In this document: positions 1,803 through 25,803 of the stretch, one piece after another | Numbering within the stretch: position 1 is the first letter of the stretch | How the letters are laid out: each line of letters begins with the position of its first letter | Sequence record: KM389300.1 | Direction: 5' to 3' (one strand) | Source: Escherichia phage CBA6 | Length of the DNA stretch: 25,803 nucleotides | The notes under the pieces: model-generated | Told to the model about the DNA's origin: nothing | The model's database searches: none | The model's input: only the letters and a program-made list of their open reading frames with translations | Translations under genes and position numbers: made by a program

Positions 1803-3074
1803 ATGAACGATACACAAATAAAATGTGAAGAGACTTCATCTGGTGTCAACGATTTCGTAAACCACTGGATTGATTTAGTCAACCAAAAAACGATATTCAA
1901 CACTCTTTCACTCAGTCGTGACCAGGTTCACTGGGAAGACTATCTTTACAAACACACCCCGTGCGAACTCGTTGCCAACCCCGAAACCAATCAGCAGGTC
2001 TGGTTCAAGCGTGAAGACTACTTCGCGCCGCTGTCCAATTATGCAAATGGCCAGCAGGGCATTAATGGGAGCAAACTCCGTCAGGCCATCTGGCTCATGA
2101 TGGAGCATCTTAAAGCGGGAGGATCCCCAGATCTTATCCATGGTACTGTCGTTGGTAGTCCGCAGTCCCCTATGGCGACGGCAGTCTCACGGCATTTCGG
2201 CGGCAAGACAACCACTGTGCTGGGTGCCACTAAACCAACCACATGCATGAACCATGATATGGTTTCAATGTCAGCATGGTTTGGTAGTGAATTTAACTTT
2301 GTTGGATCTGGTTACAATAGCACCATTCAGCCGCGCTGTAAGAAACTCATTGAACAATTAAATCCAAAGGCGTATTATCTGGAATATGGCATTACATTGG
2401 ATCATACCGTTCATTCACCAGAACGCATTGCTGGATTCCATATGCTGGGTGGTGAGCAGGTTGCCAATATCCCAGACCATATCACTGATCTGATCATTCC
2501 TGCTGGTTCTTGTAATTCATGCACCAGTATCCTGACAGGTTTGGCGATGCATCCGAAACCAAATCTGAAGAATGTCTATCTGATCGGGATTGGACCTAAC
2601 CGATTAGATTTCATTGAAAGTCGTTTGCGCATTATCGGTAAGCAAGCAAACCTCCCTCACATAACTGATTTCACTCGTCGCTATCACGACAACCCAGACT
2701 ATGTGTATGGTAAGAAGGATCTTCAGCATGCCTCTAAGAGCGTTTCGTTGGCTGGCCTCCTAAGTGGTATCAGGCCAAAGAACGAGCCGGATATCGTGCT
2801 TCCTCGCTTTGAGGTACACCATTGGGATCTTCATACCACTAATTGGGTTCGTTACAACGACCTCATGGATTACCAGTGGGGGGATATTGAGTTGCATCCT
2901 CGTTATGAAGGTAAGGTCATGACATGGATACAGGAACACAAACCAGAATTGCTTAATGAGAACTCATTGTTTTGGATCGTGGGGAGCAAGCCATATCTGG
3001 AAGCGATGAAAGCTGCTTGTCCTGAATTATCAATCCCCGAACATGTCCCTGTGAATGAGTTTGTCCCCAGCTAA
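1803..3074 (+). CDS. PLP-dependent enzyme, ACC deaminase / D-cysteine desulfhydrase fold (tryptophan synthase beta-like, fold type II)
   Basis: Family motifs in order: FKREDYFAP...NGSKLRQ (KRDD...GGNKLRKLE block with candidate PLP lysine), VVGSPQSPMATAVSRHFG (GxxQSNHxR phosphate loop), IIPAGSCNSCTSILTGLA, HPRYEGKVM (DPVYTGKAM block), IVGSKP (HTGG block); 423 aa with a C-terminal extension. Confidence 0.75.
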   Translation: MNDTQIKCEETSSGVNDFVNHWIDLVNQKTIFNTLSLSRDQVHWEDYLYKHTPCELVANPETNQQVWFKREDYFAPLSNYANGQQGINGSKLRQAIWLMMEHLKAGGSPDLIHGTVVGSPQSPMATAVSRHFGGKTTTVLGATKPTTCMNHDMVSMSAWFGSEFNFVGSGYNSTIQPRCKKLIEQLNPKAYYLEYGITLDHTVHSPERIAGFHMLGGEQVANIPDHITDLIIPAGSCNSCTSILTGLAMHPKPNLKNVYLIGIGPNRLDFIESRLRIIGKQANLPHITDFTRRYHDNPDYVYGKKDLQHASKSVSLAGLLSGIRPKNEPDIVLPRFEVHHWDLHTTNWVRYNDLMDYQWGDIELHPRYEGKVMTWIQEHKPELLNENSLFWIVGSKPYLEAMKAACPELSIPEHVPVNEFVPS

Positions 3075-3084
3075 TCCATCCTAA

Positions 3085-3112
3085 ATACCCCATACGGACC
3101 AGTGTGGGGTAT
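3085..3112 (+). promoter_or_regulatory. hairpin immediately upstream of the ART-like gene start
   Basis: 8-bp stem ATACCCCA (3085..3092) pairing with TGGGGTAT (3105..3112), 12-nt loop; the G-run (3106..3109) that could act as SD for ATG 3115 lies in the 3' arm; no T-tract. Confidence 0.35.
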
Positions 3113-3114
3113 CT

Positions 3115-3564
3115 ATGAAAACCTTTCTAGAATTTTATCGCGAATCAACGCTACCTGATTTTACGAATATCGTTTTGTATCATGGGTCTAATGTTGAATT
3201 CGATATATTTGATTTTGAAAAATTTGGCCAGACTGACTCTGGTACGATGGGTGCTGGGTTTTACCTGACGGGGGATCCAGAAAAGGCACAGATCTACGCA
3301 GAAAATGCCGTGCGCTATCGTCAATCTGGTGAACCTATTGTCATGGCATTTCGTGTCAAGGCCAAGAAGACTCTTGTAATAGATTCCAACAATGTTTCGG
3401 TGTGGGAAAATAAAATGCGAGAGTTGGGGATAAAGCCTGGTAAGATACATGATAATGTGAAAGAACTTATCAACAAAGGGTTCGATTCCATAGCCTCTAT
3501 AAGTGCCAATAACGTTGAGGAAATGGTGGTGTTTAAGCCAGGGTTGGCGACCAGAGAAGCCTAA
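3115..3564 (+). CDS. putative H-Y-E class ADP-ribosyltransferase (diphtheria toxin / PARP-like minimal catalytic domain), 149 aa
   Basis: YHGS (His23); GAGFYLTGD with Tyr50 and a second Tyr61 exactly 11 residues later (as in DT Tyr54/Tyr65 and PARP1 Tyr896/Tyr907); NNVEEMVVF (Glu135/Glu136) near the C-terminus; function is inferred from motifs only. Confidence 0.5.
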   Translation: MKTFLEFYRESTLPDFTNIVLYHGSNVEFDIFDFEKFGQTDSGTMGAGFYLTGDPEKAQIYAENAVRYRQSGEPIVMAFRVKAKKTLVIDSNNVSVWENKMRELGIKPGKIHDNVKELINKGFDSIASISANNVEEMVVFKPGLATREA

Positions 3565-3599
3565 ATAGTCCAAAGCGGTTTATTCAAGAGGACATTACC

Positions 3600-4058
3600 A
3601 TGCCAATTTCGAAATTATTTGAATCTGATTCCCCAGCAGATATGCCTATCTGGACTGGTGTTCAAGACGGGACTACGATTGAATTCTTTGAGCGCGGGGA
3701 AACAGGCGCTGAAGAGATTTATGCTTCCGTACAAGGGACAGACGTCGTCCGCGCCGCCGTAGCTCTTGCTACATTTTTAGAGGACGCCCCGATTGACGGT
3801 ATCCCGTTTGAAGCCCATGTGGACCCAGAAGACCCGACGTCTATCATCATTACAGTCCAGGGTGCTGAATATACATCTTACAGTATTGAGCACGATGAAG
3901 AAACAGGGGCGCTGTTTATAGCCACGGATCTTCAATTGGAAGATGACGAAATTGAATATCTGAAACAGAATGGTCGTCTTCCGGAGTACTCTGACGAAGA
4001 ATTGGATTCTGCGTTTGATGAAGTAGACGATGAAGACGACTTTTGGGATGGGAAATAA
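3600..4058 (+). CDS. highly acidic hypothetical protein (152 aa), possible DNA mimic or partner of the ART-like protein
   Basis: ATG at 3600 with SD AGAGGA (3587..3592); very Asp/Glu-rich, ending DEVDDEDDFWDGK; 35 nt after the ART-like gene. Confidence 0.6.
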   Translation: MPISKLFESDSPADMPIWTGVQDGTTIEFFERGETGAEEIYASVQGTDVVRAAVALATFLEDAPIDGIPFEAHVDPEDPTSIIITVQGAEYTSYSIEHDEETGALFIATDLQLEDDEIEYLKQNGRLPEYSDEELDSAFDEVDDEDDFWDGK

Positions 4059-4088
4059 ACAAAGGGGCTTAATGCCCCTTTGTTTTAG
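4057..4088. terminator. bidirectional intrinsic terminator between convergent genes
   Basis: Stem AAAGGGGC (4061..4068) / GCCCCTTT (4074..4081), loop TTAAT; T-tract on both strands; sits between the + gene ending at 4058 and the - gene ending at 4085. Confidence 0.75.
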
Positions 4089-4459
4089 ATATCGTTTGTG
4101 TGTACTGTGAATCTCATTGTTACGACATCTGTTCTTTCATCCTTGTGTAATTCGAACTTCAAACCTTCCTTCAGAAGACTCGCCACCAACAATGTTTTGA
4201 ACTTTTCGACTTGCTTGTCTGTTGGGTATTTTTGAGACTTATATGCCTGTTGAAATGCGGTTAATATTTCGTCAAACCTGTGGCCACCAACAGCGTACAC
4301 CATGTCATCAATTTCAACTCCGCGATTTGCTTGGGAAACGAGTTGCTTCTTCATTTTACAAACAAAGATATCAACGGCTTTTTCAACTATCCCCATGGCT
4401 TCCCAAATCTGAGCCTGGTCAATCGTAGTCTGTAATTCTTGTGCGAAGTTCTTCATCAT
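4085..4459 (-). CDS. hypothetical protein (124 aa)
   Basis: ATG at 4459 (- strand) with SD GAGGAAGG; start overlaps the stop of the upstream - strand gene (ATGA overlap), suggesting translational coupling. Confidence 0.55.
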   Translation of the reverse strand: MMKNFAQELQTTIDQAQIWEAMGIVEKAVDIFVCKMKKQLVSQANRGVEIDDMVYAVGGHRFDEILTAFQQAYKSQKYPTDKQVEKFKTLLVASLLKEGLKFELHKDERTDVVTMRFTVHTNDI

Positions 4460-5046: not shown

Positions 5047-5577
5047 TTAGATACGGGAATCCAACCATGCATTCTTTTCATTCTGCCATTCCCAAGCGGC
5101 CTGACCACCAGCCATGATAACTTCCAGAGAAGGAGTATTGTCATCCTCGCCACCGTGTAGGTCTGGGTCAAATCCATCATCTTCAGGATCGTCTTCACAT
5201 TCGTTCTGATATGCGGAATATTCAATATAATGCGCTTCGGCTTCGCAATCCATGTCTCCTAGAGCAGTCTCAAGAGTCATTTTACCTTCGGCAATCAGCT
5301 CAGCCGTTGCGTCGTCCAGACCTGCGTCTTTCGCTTCAACGAACAGTTCGTGACGTTTCTGGAAGAAAAAGAACTGCATTGCGTCGCAGTGGTTGTCGAA
5401 CTTCTGTTTGAGTTCGCAACGAACACCCTTGACAACCGGATGGTAAACCACCATGTAACGGCCAGCAGAAATTTTGTCACCGTTTATAGCAGCGCCGAAG
5501 AAGTTACCGAAGACTTGGCCTTCGCCTGCGTCGCACAGAACGGTATTTTTGTTTGCTGTTTCTGCTAAAATTTTCAT
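5047..5577 (-). CDS. hypothetical protein (177 aa) with strongly acidic C-terminal half
   Basis: Start ATG at 5577 (MKILAETANK...) with SD AAGGAAA, about 45 nt downstream of the early-type promoter; the longer ORF to 5757 is an SD-less extension; C-terminal half rich in D/E. Confidence 0.55.
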   Translation of the reverse strand: MKILAETANKNTVLCDAGEGQVFGNFFGAAINGDKISAGRYMVVYHPVVKGVRCELKQKFDNHCDAMQFFFFQKRHELFVEAKDAGLDDATAELIAEGKMTLETALGDMDCEAEAHYIEYSAYQNECEDDPEDDGFDPDLHGGEDDNTPSLEVIMAGGQAAWEWQNEKNAWLDSRI

Positions 5578-22888: not shown

Positions 22889-22914
22889 GAGGAGGCTTCG
22901 GCCTCCTTTTCTTT
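22889..22914 (+). terminator. intrinsic terminator
   Basis: Stem AGGAGGC (22890..22896) / GCCTCCT (22901..22907) with TTCG tetraloop, then TTTTCTTT. Confidence 0.8.
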
Positions 22915-22923
22915 GAGGTTAAT

Positions 22924-23643: not shown

Positions 23644-24036
23644 ATGGCTATCGTTGACGAAAGCAATTTGATGGAATATGCCCTGAGACACTATATCACT
23701 GCTGGTGTCTCACGGGATGATTTGATGGTAGACATTCAGCGAATTTCGCTAATTAATCAATCATTGAAGAGATTTGTGCCAGGGAAAAGTCCTCGTGTGC
23801 TTATCAATCAATTGATTATTCTTTTCAATACTTTCGAAACTGAAGCTGTGTGTCGAATGCTGGTGTTGAAAACGGATAAGAACCAACATCCTCGTCTAAA
23901 GGCAGCGCTGTTGACGTTAGGAGTTTGGAGAGATGATTTATGTTCCGGTTCATACGAACCAGATAACGAGCTGATGATGGCTCTGAACAACGATTTGGAT
24001 GAGTGGAGGAAACCATGCCAACAATCACAGTATTAG
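23644..24036 (+). CDS. hypothetical protein (130 aa)
   Basis: ATG at 23644; no clear SD; 3' end overlaps the next gene by 22 nt. Confidence 0.45.
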   Translation: MAIVDESNLMEYALRHYITAGVSRDDLMVDIQRISLINQSLKRFVPGKSPRVLINQLIILFNTFETEAVCRMLVLKTDKNQHPRLKAALLTLGVWRDDLCSGSYEPDNELMMALNNDLDEWRKPCQQSQY

Positions 24037-24824
24037 TCGCGCCGGAAGTTGTCCGCAACAAACCGGAAACCGAACGCAATCATGTCGTGACGGGTGTTGC
24101 AAAGGGTTGGCAAAAAACCAGCCTAAATCAAGATCCTGATGAGATCCTGACCGAATGTAAAGGTCTTGATGCGTTGCTGACCAAAAGTAATCTGCAAGCG
24201 GACGGTGTCACCAAAGTTGATCCGACCAAGCCAGTAGGTTTCCAGGTTTCTTATGAAATCCATGATCCGACTGCTGTTCTTACCACAGGTCTGACCATTA
24301 CTCCGGCTACGGCCAGCGGGGAAATAGGCCAAATCGTTGAATTGCTGGCCACTGTTGCTCCTGTGAACGCAACATATCAAGGAGTGAACTGGTATTCTGG
24401 CGACCTGACGAAGGCGATCCATATCGGCGGTGGTAAATTCAAACTGCTTCAGTCTGGTTCTGTTACAGTTTATGGTGTTACTGTAGAAGGAAATCACACC
24501 GATTCCACCGTCATTACCGTCGCAGGGTTGTTGTCGTTGACAACTGACCTCATCGCCACCAAAGATGTTACTGCTGGTCAGGATGGCACTTTTAGCGTTG
24601 TGGCTGCGGGTGGGACAACCCCTTACACTTATGTGTGGCACTTCTCTGATGTTCCTGGCGGTGCGGGTGCGGTGATTGATGCCAGTGCTAACACGACTGC
24701 TGCTACTGCCAATTTGGTCATCACTGCAGTTGAAGCATCAGATGAAGGCGAATATTGGTGTGTAGTTTCTGATGCGGATGGTCATTCTGTAACATCCACC
24801 CGTTGTGAAATGGCTGTGGTGTAA
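24015..24824 (+). CDS. Ig-like domain protein (269 aa), Big_2-like plus Ig-like domains
   Basis: ATG at 24015 with SD GGAGG (24005..24009); Big_2-like stretch ATASGEIGQIVELLATVAPVNATYQGVNWYSGD...VTVYGVTVEGNHTDSTVITV; second Ig-like domain with DEGEYWCVV; Thr/Ala/Gly-rich linkers. Confidence 0.6.
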   Translation: MPTITVLVAPEVVRNKPETERNHVVTGVAKGWQKTSLNQDPDEILTECKGLDALLTKSNLQADGVTKVDPTKPVGFQVSYEIHDPTAVLTTGLTITPATASGEIGQIVELLATVAPVNATYQGVNWYSGDLTKAIHIGGGKFKLLQSGSVTVYGVTVEGNHTDSTVITVAGLLSLTTDLIATKDVTAGQDGTFSVVAAGGTTPYTYVWHFSDVPGGAGAVIDASANTTAATANLVITAVEASDEGEYWCVVSDADGHSVTSTRCEMAVV

Positions 24825-24827
24825 TTT

Positions 24828-25049
24828 ATGAAGAGCTTCCAGGATTACCTAGAAGACTCTTCGGCTCCGGCCACCACTACCGCTGATGTGGGGAAACCCG
24901 AAGGCGGTATGGTTCAAGAACCTGTCAAGAGACCGAAAGATCTTGAAGAAGAGTCAGGGTTTAAAAAGATCTTCGGTAATATATTCAAAGACCTTGACCT
25001 ATCCAAGGCCAGGAAATGGAATTTCAGGACAGGCAAATATGACGATTAA
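24828..25049 (+). CDS. small hypothetical protein (73 aa)
   Basis: ATG at 24828, 3 nt after the upstream stop; charged and Pro/Lys-rich; followed by a strong terminator. Confidence 0.45.
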   Translation: MKSFQDYLEDSSAPATTTADVGKPEGGMVQEPVKRPKDLEEESGFKKIFGNIFKDLDLSKARKWNFRTGKYDD

Positions 25050-25070
25050 AGAGGCTTCGGCCTCTTTTTC
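25050..25070 (+). terminator. intrinsic terminator
   Basis: Stem AGAGGC (25050..25055) / GCCTCT (25060..25065) with TTCG tetraloop, then TTTTTC. Confidence 0.8.
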
Positions 25071-25137
25071 ATTGTTGTGTCTAAGGGTATAATTTTTATG
25101 TTCCCCATGAGCGGAACGTAAATTCGAGGCTCCAACA

Positions 25138-25716
25138 ATGAAATCTTTAGTTAAACGAAAAGTAGAAGTATCCCTTAATGCGCATATTGAAATGCTACAA
25201 CAATTGGTTCTAGATGCGTATGAAATTCAAAAAGATCGCCGGATTCGTCACGACCTTGATCCCGCAGACAGTGGGAGCATGCTCTACTATCGAATGCTTC
25301 GCCAGACTGGTCACACTGCGGCGTTAAAGAAACTCCTTTCTGAAAAATTCCAAATTGAAAATGACATCGACGTATTCGGTGTATTTCACACTGCGGCGTT
25401 AAAGAAACTCCTTTCTGAAAAATTCCAAATTGAAAATGACATCGACGTATTCGGTGTATTTCACACTGCTCGTGAACGTGATACGTTTTTCACTCAATCG
25501 AAAAATGTAACCACAGGGGAGCAGTATGAAAAATTTGATCGAAAAGAGAAAACGTCGACCATGGCCAATTTTATGGGAACCAAAATCGACAAGGCCAATA
25601 TCATCGTGTTTTCAGATACTCTGCATGATGCTAAGCGCCTTTCCGCTGCCCATCAAATGTTAAAAGATAATCGCAGCTGCTTTACAAATTTGACTTTAGT
25701 AGTGTTTCTGGGCTAG
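25138..25716 (+). CDS. hypothetical protein (192 aa) containing a perfect 25-aa tandem duplication
   Basis: ATG at 25138 with SD GAGG (25124..25127); internal repeat HTAALKKLLSEKFQIENDIDVFGVF x2 encoded by identical 75-bp units. Confidence 0.6.
   Translation: MKSLVKRKVEVSLNAHIEMLQQLVLDAYEIQKDRRIRHDLDPADSGSMLYYRMLRQTGHTAALKKLLSEKFQIENDIDVFGVFHTAALKKLLSEKFQIENDIDVFGVFHTARERDTFFTQSKNVTTGEQYEKFDRKEKTSTMANFMGTKIDKANIIVFSDTLHDAKRLSAAHQMLKDNRSCFTNLTLVVFLG
25312..25461 (+). repeat. perfect 75-bp direct tandem duplication (2 copies), in frame within a CDS
   Basis: 25312..25386 and 25387..25461 are identical base for base; each copy begins CACACTGC, and the same 8-mer follows the second copy at 25462. 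Confidence 0.9.
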
Positions 25717-25763: not shown

Positions 25764-25803
25764 ATGCTACGTTGCAAAAGAGGTTCCAACTCCTTTAAGT
25801 TGG
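25764..25803 (+). CDS. 5' end of a CDS running off the window (13 codons seen)
   Basis: ATG at 25764 with SD GGAGGTGA (25754..25761); reads MLRCKRGSNSFKL... to the window edge. Confidence 0.3.
   Translation, partial: MLRCKRGSNSFKL

Follow-up and report, generated by a model that had tools for sequence, protein, structure and literature searches.

A 75-bp in-frame tandem duplication in the Vi01_008 orthologue of Escherichia phage CBA6, probably recent and bounded by microhomology

The stretch of Escherichia phage CBA6 DNA analysed here (KM389300.1; 25,803 nt, referred to as the window) contains a gene in which the same 75 nucleotides stand twice in succession, which raises the question of whether the second copy is an old feature of the gene family, a recent mutation or a product of library preparation or assembly. 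An earlier note had described a perfect in-frame tandem duplication at 25312..25386 and 25387..25461 that encodes a duplicated block of 25 amino acids, and both statements were borne out. A script comparison found the two 75-mers (both on the + strand) to be identical, and TRF returned a single array at 25311..25469 (period 75, 2.1 copies, 100% matches, 0 indels, score 318). A direct-repeat scan placed the copies at 25311-25385 and 25386-25460 with 100% identity, and this was the sole direct repeat of more than 32 nt in the 25.8-kb window. The units lie head to tail with no spacer between them, as expected of a tandem duplication, and a perfect match of 75 nt cannot have originated by chance. 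The array is in frame within the ORF at 25138..25716 (+), which encodes 192 aa, against 167 aa in relatives. The translated ORF reads ...RQTG-HTAALKKLLSEKFQIENDIDVFGVF-HTAALKKLLSEKFQIENDIDVFGVF-HTARERD..., with copy 1 as residues 59-83 and copy 2 as residues 84-108. The inserted length of 75 nt is divisible by 3, which preserves the frame and the native stop codon and lengthens the protein by 25 residues.

The borders of the units share a short direct repeat. From 25300 to 25470 the order is ...CAGACTGG TCACACTGC GGCGTTAAAG...GGTGTATT TCACACTGC GGCGTTAAAG...GGTGTATT TCACACTGC TCGTGAA..., and the run of matches at an offset of 75 extends over 84 nt (25311 to 25394, by script). The 9-mer TCACACTGC is present on the + strand at 25311-25319 (left border), 25386-25394 (junction of copy 1 and copy 2) and 25461-25469 (right border), which gives three 9-mers for two units (n+1) with one at the junction. 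The left and right 9-mers are ancestral and were found in relatives. The middle one, preceded by GGTGTATT and followed by GGCGTT, marks the new junction (GGTGTATTTCACACTGCGGCGTT) and occurs in this context in no other record. The earlier note had given the flank as the 8-mer CACACTGC; a shared flanking microhomology does exist, but it is 9 nt long (TCACACTGC) rather than 8.

Judged by sequence similarity, the window is a genome segment of a Kuttervirus (Vi01-like, Ackermannviridae; phages of Salmonella and E. coli). The region matches about 268-269 phage records, the closest at 99.8%, and the best match to the first 25 kb is phage Sa157lw (98.1%). The gene with the duplication was delimited from the ORF list and a match to phrog_4164; it is an orthologue of Vi01_008 and has the same start and stop as its relatives. 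Annotated orthologues are present in Vi01, Sa157lw, SeF3a and ST-W77, and the gene order in the window is that of these four phages, with an Ig-domain structural protein (24003..24824), a 73-aa ORF (24828..25049), the duplicated gene and a 63-aa ORF; the next small gene after the duplicated one starts at 25764. A terminator-like hairpin (AAAGAGGCTTCGGCCTCTTT and then a T-run) closes the upstream gene at 25048..25067 (+) and corresponds to an annotated terminator in Maynard, Mooltan and Matapan. Because of this hairpin, the duplicated gene would begin a new transcription unit. A sigma-70-like promoter match (TTTTCA, 16-nt spacer, TATAAT; 10/12) lies about 45 nt 5' of the ATG at 25066..25093 (+); it is a match to the consensus only, and promoter-consensus matches in the region are no more numerous than expected from shuffles. 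The lone Rfam match overlaps the upstream terminator hairpin and scores far below the gathering threshold, and no RNA element was found by that search. Two terminator-like hairpins (GAGGCTTCGGCCTC and then a T-run), at 22892-22915 and 25051-25074, are 92% identical and 2.2 kb apart. One follows the rIIB-like gene and the other the 73-aa ORF, and the pair looks like a reused terminator module.

Outside the repeat, the window is collinear with Sa157lw except for mosaic patches, and its ORFs are intact. The ORF at 1803-3074 (423 aa) differs from its Sa157lw orthologue (locus 3003-4430) over the first ~35 codons and has an N-terminal region that is 52 codons shorter, and the remaining ~390 aa are nearly identical. 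We considered the resulting 156-nt length gap as a second repeat event and rejected it, as the difference is an N-terminal mosaic replacement. A second divergent patch relative to Sa157lw lies at 5373-5575. Over positions 1-25000 of the window, the annotation of relatives includes a DNA polymerase, rIIA/rIIB, a protein with an aGPT-Pplase2 domain, a PLP-dependent enzyme and a guanylate-kinase-like gene; together, these genes look like the thymidine-hypermodification gene set of ViI-like phages. Kuttervirus-type genes with 74% and 99% protein identity to window genes were also encountered in OR844942 (Enterococcus phage Efm 3-10) and MN871475 (Pseudomonas phage Pa-sanjiao), respectively, which suggests mislabelled hosts or contamination in these two deposits.

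Two adjacent copies of a protein segment can reflect a conserved two-copy domain architecture, and the age of the repeat here can be read from its copy number in relatives. Direct alignment to four relatives (SeF3a, Sa157lw, Vi01 and ST-W77) showed the block once in each. With a 1004-nt query, each close record covered 929-930 nt in two pieces, 75 nt short of the query, and with a 116-nt query centred on the junction all 33 of 33 matching records aligned in two pieces over 84 nt, which corresponds to one copy. Among the best 60 of 268 records in a tblastn search, the gene was an uninterrupted 501 nt (498 in SJ2) with SeF3a, which has a 1-nt insertion, as the sole exception. The duplication was found in none of the 268 phage records. 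It was likewise absent from all 37 protein clusters of the family (90% identity, drawn from 5.8 billion clustered proteins; family length 155-171 aa). Four clusters of 195-201 aa were considered as duplicated forms and rejected, as their additional length lies only at the N-terminus, where a start further upstream was called. When 1.84 billion representatives (50% identity) were searched with a profile, 21 proteins were retrieved, none of them duplicated and the full-length ones 152-172 aa long; P0055 (824 aa, 8 matched stretches) was considered as a multi-copy homologue and set aside as spurious, being a low-complexity repeat protein. The exact junction sequence was absent from viral, metagenome and genome contig collections, the exact 192-aa protein had no match in a protein look-up, and a literature search for this gene or for a duplication in Kuttervirus or Ackermannviridae found nothing specific.

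Because the relatives are single copy, an ancient duplication is refuted. The two copies present in this gene are the only ones that could speak for a conserved internal repeat, and they are 100% identical in DNA; we give that reading practically no weight. On the sequence comparisons above, the duplication is private to this phage genome and very recent. The earlier note had proposed copy number in related phages as a check and had listed a very recent event as one way to account for zero divergence; the relatives examined have a single copy, and this, together with the absence of the junction elsewhere, supports a recent private event.

The single-copy alleles also indicate how the second copy may have been made. 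In SeF3a, Sa157lw and Vi01, the gene carries TCACACTGC, 66 nt of intervening sequence and then TCACACTGC again, so that the two 9-mers are exactly 75 nt apart; in ST-W77, TCACACTGC lies on the 5' side and TCATACTGC (8/9) on the 3' side. The suggestion in the earlier note of slippage or unequal exchange between short direct repeats thus fits the parental alleles, in which the 9-mers lie one period (75 nt) apart. Kuttervirus probably shares T4-type replication and recombination. We propose that two 9-bp direct repeats (TCACACTGC), 75 bp apart, pre-existed in the Vi01_008 orthologue and that a growing 3' end or a broken end on which the downstream 9-mer had been copied annealed to the upstream 9-mer, either of the template or of a sister genome, in the course of replication or of recombination-dependent replication. 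A further round of copying over the 75 nt would then have yielded two identical units, a single junction 9-mer and three 9-mers in total. The route may have been slippage, template switching or unequal short-homology recombination.

Both copies have GAC where Vi01 and Sa157lw have GAA, and GAC also occurs in SeF3a, GOT and N6, which match the unit at 100% identity. Because both copies carry GAC, the duplication would be later than the GAA/GAC substitution and would have occurred within this sublineage. We also considered hairpin-assisted slippage and rejected it, as the 84-nt ancestral segment folds no better than shuffled sequences on either strand (z 0.08 and 0.38). The single-copy version of the window contains 22 exact direct-repeat pairs of at least 9 nt spaced 10-100 nt apart and, because so many comparable pairs are present, the site of the duplication is not special. 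The resulting 84-bp perfect direct repeat should be lost by recombination at appreciable frequency, and the allele is probably unstable.

Tandem amplifications in T4 have 6-10 bp of microhomology at their borders and retain one copy between the units (PMC9391042; Kumagai 1993 and Wu 1991, cited therein). The duplication described here resembles those of T4-like phages (rII; the Hp17 amplifications; dmd-tifA, Srikant et al. 2022, PMC9391042) in its head-to-tail units, in its borders at short (6-10 bp) direct repeats of the parental sequence with one copy left between the units (PMC9391042), and in its setting in a large lytic myovirus. Unlike the T4-like cases, which involve whole genes or kilobases and act through gene dosage, it spans only 75 bp and lies in frame inside one gene.

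We therefore had to weigh a real event against an artefact in which the phage has one copy and the second was introduced by PCR template switching at the 9-mers, or by a long-read or overlap assembler that made a spurious tandem copy later polished to identity. The assembled sequence is the sole source for the junction, and several observations would fit such an origin: there is no divergence between the copies, the duplication has no second case among 268 records or in any collection searched, with no independent assembly that contains it, and microhomology is exploited by PCR jumping too, which means that the 9-mers would not distinguish an in vitro from an in vivo event. However, chimeric molecules usually make up only a small fraction of a PCR product and would lose in the consensus, and an assembler based on k-mers is unable to invent a junction from a 9-nt repeat. 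A purely computational artefact is disfavoured because a de Bruijn assembler with k>9 needs reads across the junction. Likewise, because the pre-existing 9-mers are spaced by exactly one period, a template-switch event is the better explanation than a computational error. The rest of the window is also clean and collinear with relatives, and its good alignment to Sa157lw and undamaged ORFs show that the assembly is not of low quality overall.

A perfect tandem duplication has moreover been deposited for the same gene in another phage. In rabagast (MT074469, locus 928-959), 16 bp (TTTGCTCCGGCAACAT) are present twice in tandem, and the authors of that record annotated them as repeat_region. As in CBA6, this is a perfect two-copy tandem in the orthologous gene that is private to one isolate. 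It differs from the CBA6 duplication in that it is 16 bp long, lies ~60 nt further upstream (an estimate from gene coordinates), has no flanking microhomology and is out of frame, which splits the gene into two CDS. Given these observations, we regard an artefact as a minority possibility that deserves to be kept in mind, and a real, very recent, microhomology-bounded tandem duplication private to this genome as the probable explanation.

The duplicated gene matches PHROG family phrog_4164, 'histone family DNA-binding' (E 3.9e-86), in a match that the duplication splits into two stretches, and the label 'histone family DNA-binding' or 'histone-like protein' has been copied into many records. 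Pfam returned no match for the protein of the window or for any of 37 family members at E<=5 (Bac_DNA_binding included), NCBIfam returned none for the protein of the duplicated gene, a PDB sequence search had no match at E<=10 and PADLOC had no match to defence families. The predicted structure shows neither an HU/IHF fold (helical body with β-ribbon arms) nor a histone fold. The 'histone family DNA-binding' label is thus without support from the sequence searches or the predicted fold.

The predicted fold is instead a RecA-like α/β fold. A Walker A motif ([AG]xxxxGK[ST]) was found in 0/37 members, and GK[ST] occurs nowhere in them; TGHT lies at the β1-α1 junction in 36/37. Walker B or DExx motifs (hhhD[DE] or DEx[HD]) were also found in 0/37 members, and a later strand carries [IV][IV][IV]F[SP]D[TA] (of the IIVFSDT type) in 36/37. 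No second RecA-like domain is present; the protein ends after one domain, with full-length members of 152-172 aa. Because these motifs are absent, the domain is single and neither an HU match nor an HU fold was found, the protein can be assigned neither to the helicases nor to the HU or histone-like proteins. From the model, it looks like a stand-alone, motif-degenerate RecA-like (helicase domain 1-like) α/β domain. Compared with RecA-like domain 1 of SF1/SF2 helicases (e.g. T4 UvsW, PDB 2oca/1rif), it consists of one domain of 167 aa, lacks a second RecA domain and has no Walker A or DExx motif; sequence identity is 5-17%, and the likeness is one of predicted fold, with homology unproven. In BFVD, Foldseek retrieved small (147-172 aa) uncharacterised proteins with the same predicted fold at E 1e-4 to 4e-3, from Pseudomonas phages EL, 201phi2-1, PhiPA3 and Noxifer, Stenotrophomonas phage Mendera and Aeromonas phage Aes012. 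From these predicted structures, stand-alone degenerate helicase-like domains may form a wider class among large phages, jumbo phages included. As a side result of modest practical value, the analysis casts doubt on the widely propagated 'histone family DNA-binding' label in Ackermannviridae.

The duplicated block (residues 59-83) runs from the His of TGHT to the Phe that precedes a conserved FH[TS]. In an AlphaFold model of the single-copy protein (pLDDT 83, pTM 0.80), it spans two helices and a strand (H56-67, H69-75 and E79-83), so that the block is one complete α-α-β (helix-helix-strand) unit. Positions conserved in at least 90% of members make up 12/25 of the block versus 54/142 elsewhere, so that the block and the remainder of the protein are conserved to a similar degree. 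When the 192-aa protein was modelled, the core was retained (pLDDT 76). Copy 2 occupies the native helix-helix-strand position (H79-92, H94-100, E104-108) and copy 1 is extruded as a low-confidence helix and loop (pLDDT 48-59 over residues 56-77), a placement of the two copies that is biased by the alignment. An extra helix-helix-strand unit would thereby come immediately after the near-invariant T57-G58-H59-T60 motif, at the β1-α1 junction equivalent to a P-loop. On the basis of these models, the 192-aa protein may still fold, and the 25-residue insertion probably perturbs or abolishes its function. The duplicated allele probably persists because the gene would be dispensable in culture and the variant would have been fixed by a plaque-purification bottleneck.

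Other lesions in this gene bear on its dispensability. In SeF3a (ON809763, locus 1839-2343), one additional A in an A-run splits the gene, and in phage 38 (NC_029042, locus 298-809) the loss of one A causes a frameshift; these two homopolymer frameshifts may be sequencing errors or true loss alleles. Truncated versions of the gene product were also seen in BFVD for SeSz-1 (129 aa), phage 38 (91 aa) and Serratia phage 3M (123 aa). The occurrence of several independent lesions hints that the gene is dispensable in culture. As a control, we used the DUF7207 gene (window 23644-24036): in spread samples, interrupted alleles were found in 2/~58 Ackermannviridae records for the duplicated gene versus 0/~32 for the control, which is not significant. 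We considered the gene as a lesion hotspot and did not retain the idea, as interrupted records are too few (2/~58 versus 0/~32) for a claim of enrichment. The two genes differ in their rate of change. The DUF7207 gene is 99-100% identical across Kuttervirus and 95% identical in Klebsiella and Serratia phages, with homologues in cyanophages and a Vibrio phage at 33-41%, whereas the duplicated gene falls into identity classes of 96, 83, 69 and 36% within the genus. By this sequence comparison, the duplicated gene, two ORFs downstream of the DUF7207 gene, does evolve much faster.

Fast evolution and repeated lesions could also mean that the expansion was adaptive, with 25 additional residues selected because they changed or abolished the activity or recognisability of the protein, possibly as an escape from a host defence that senses an early protein. 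The preserved frame would agree with this, as would the fast divergence of the gene within the genus next to a DUF7207 neighbour that stays 99-100% identical and the independent lesions that rabagast, SeF3a and phage 38 carry in it. There is precedent in other phages, as in-frame intragenic tandem duplications were selected in a myovirus tail-fibre gene during coevolution (PMC6365445), and microhomology-bounded amplifications in T4 were selected against toxIN (PMC9391042). However, an in-frame outcome has a prior of 1 in 3, the 75-bp duplication recurs in no other isolate, and the gene does not have significantly more lesions than the control gene. PADLOC assigned the protein to no known defence or anti-defence family. 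The tail-fibre duplication of EfV12-phi1 is like the one in CBA6 in being an in-frame intragenic tandem duplication with perfect copies in a lytic myovirus (PMC6365445). In EfV12-phi1, however, the units are 1.8 kb long, the tail fibre has a clear link to host range, and the duplication recurred in replicate populations with variable copy number, whereas in CBA6 a 75-bp singleton lies in a non-structural gene of no known function. We consider an adaptive origin unlikely.

A more specific proposal is that the Vi01_008 family comprises an early, rapidly evolving protein whose degenerate fold resembles that of helicases and which is costly on some hosts, for example when a host defence senses it. 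Four lesions (75-bp duplication in CBA6, 16-bp duplication in rabagast, frameshifts in SeF3a and in phage 38) would then be independent escape or loss alleles selected during propagation. We think this very unlikely; if it were true, the gene would be a recurrent target of host-imposed selection in Ackermannviridae.

The reading we prefer remains a recent, private duplication between two short direct repeats. Such a change is an ordinary, textbook kind of mutation (or else a library artefact) and not a new biological feature. Its value is as a flag for genome curation and as a naturally occurring marker for an event of very recent date. If the dispensability of the gene is confirmed, it could be a neutral insertion site for engineering Kuttervirus phages.
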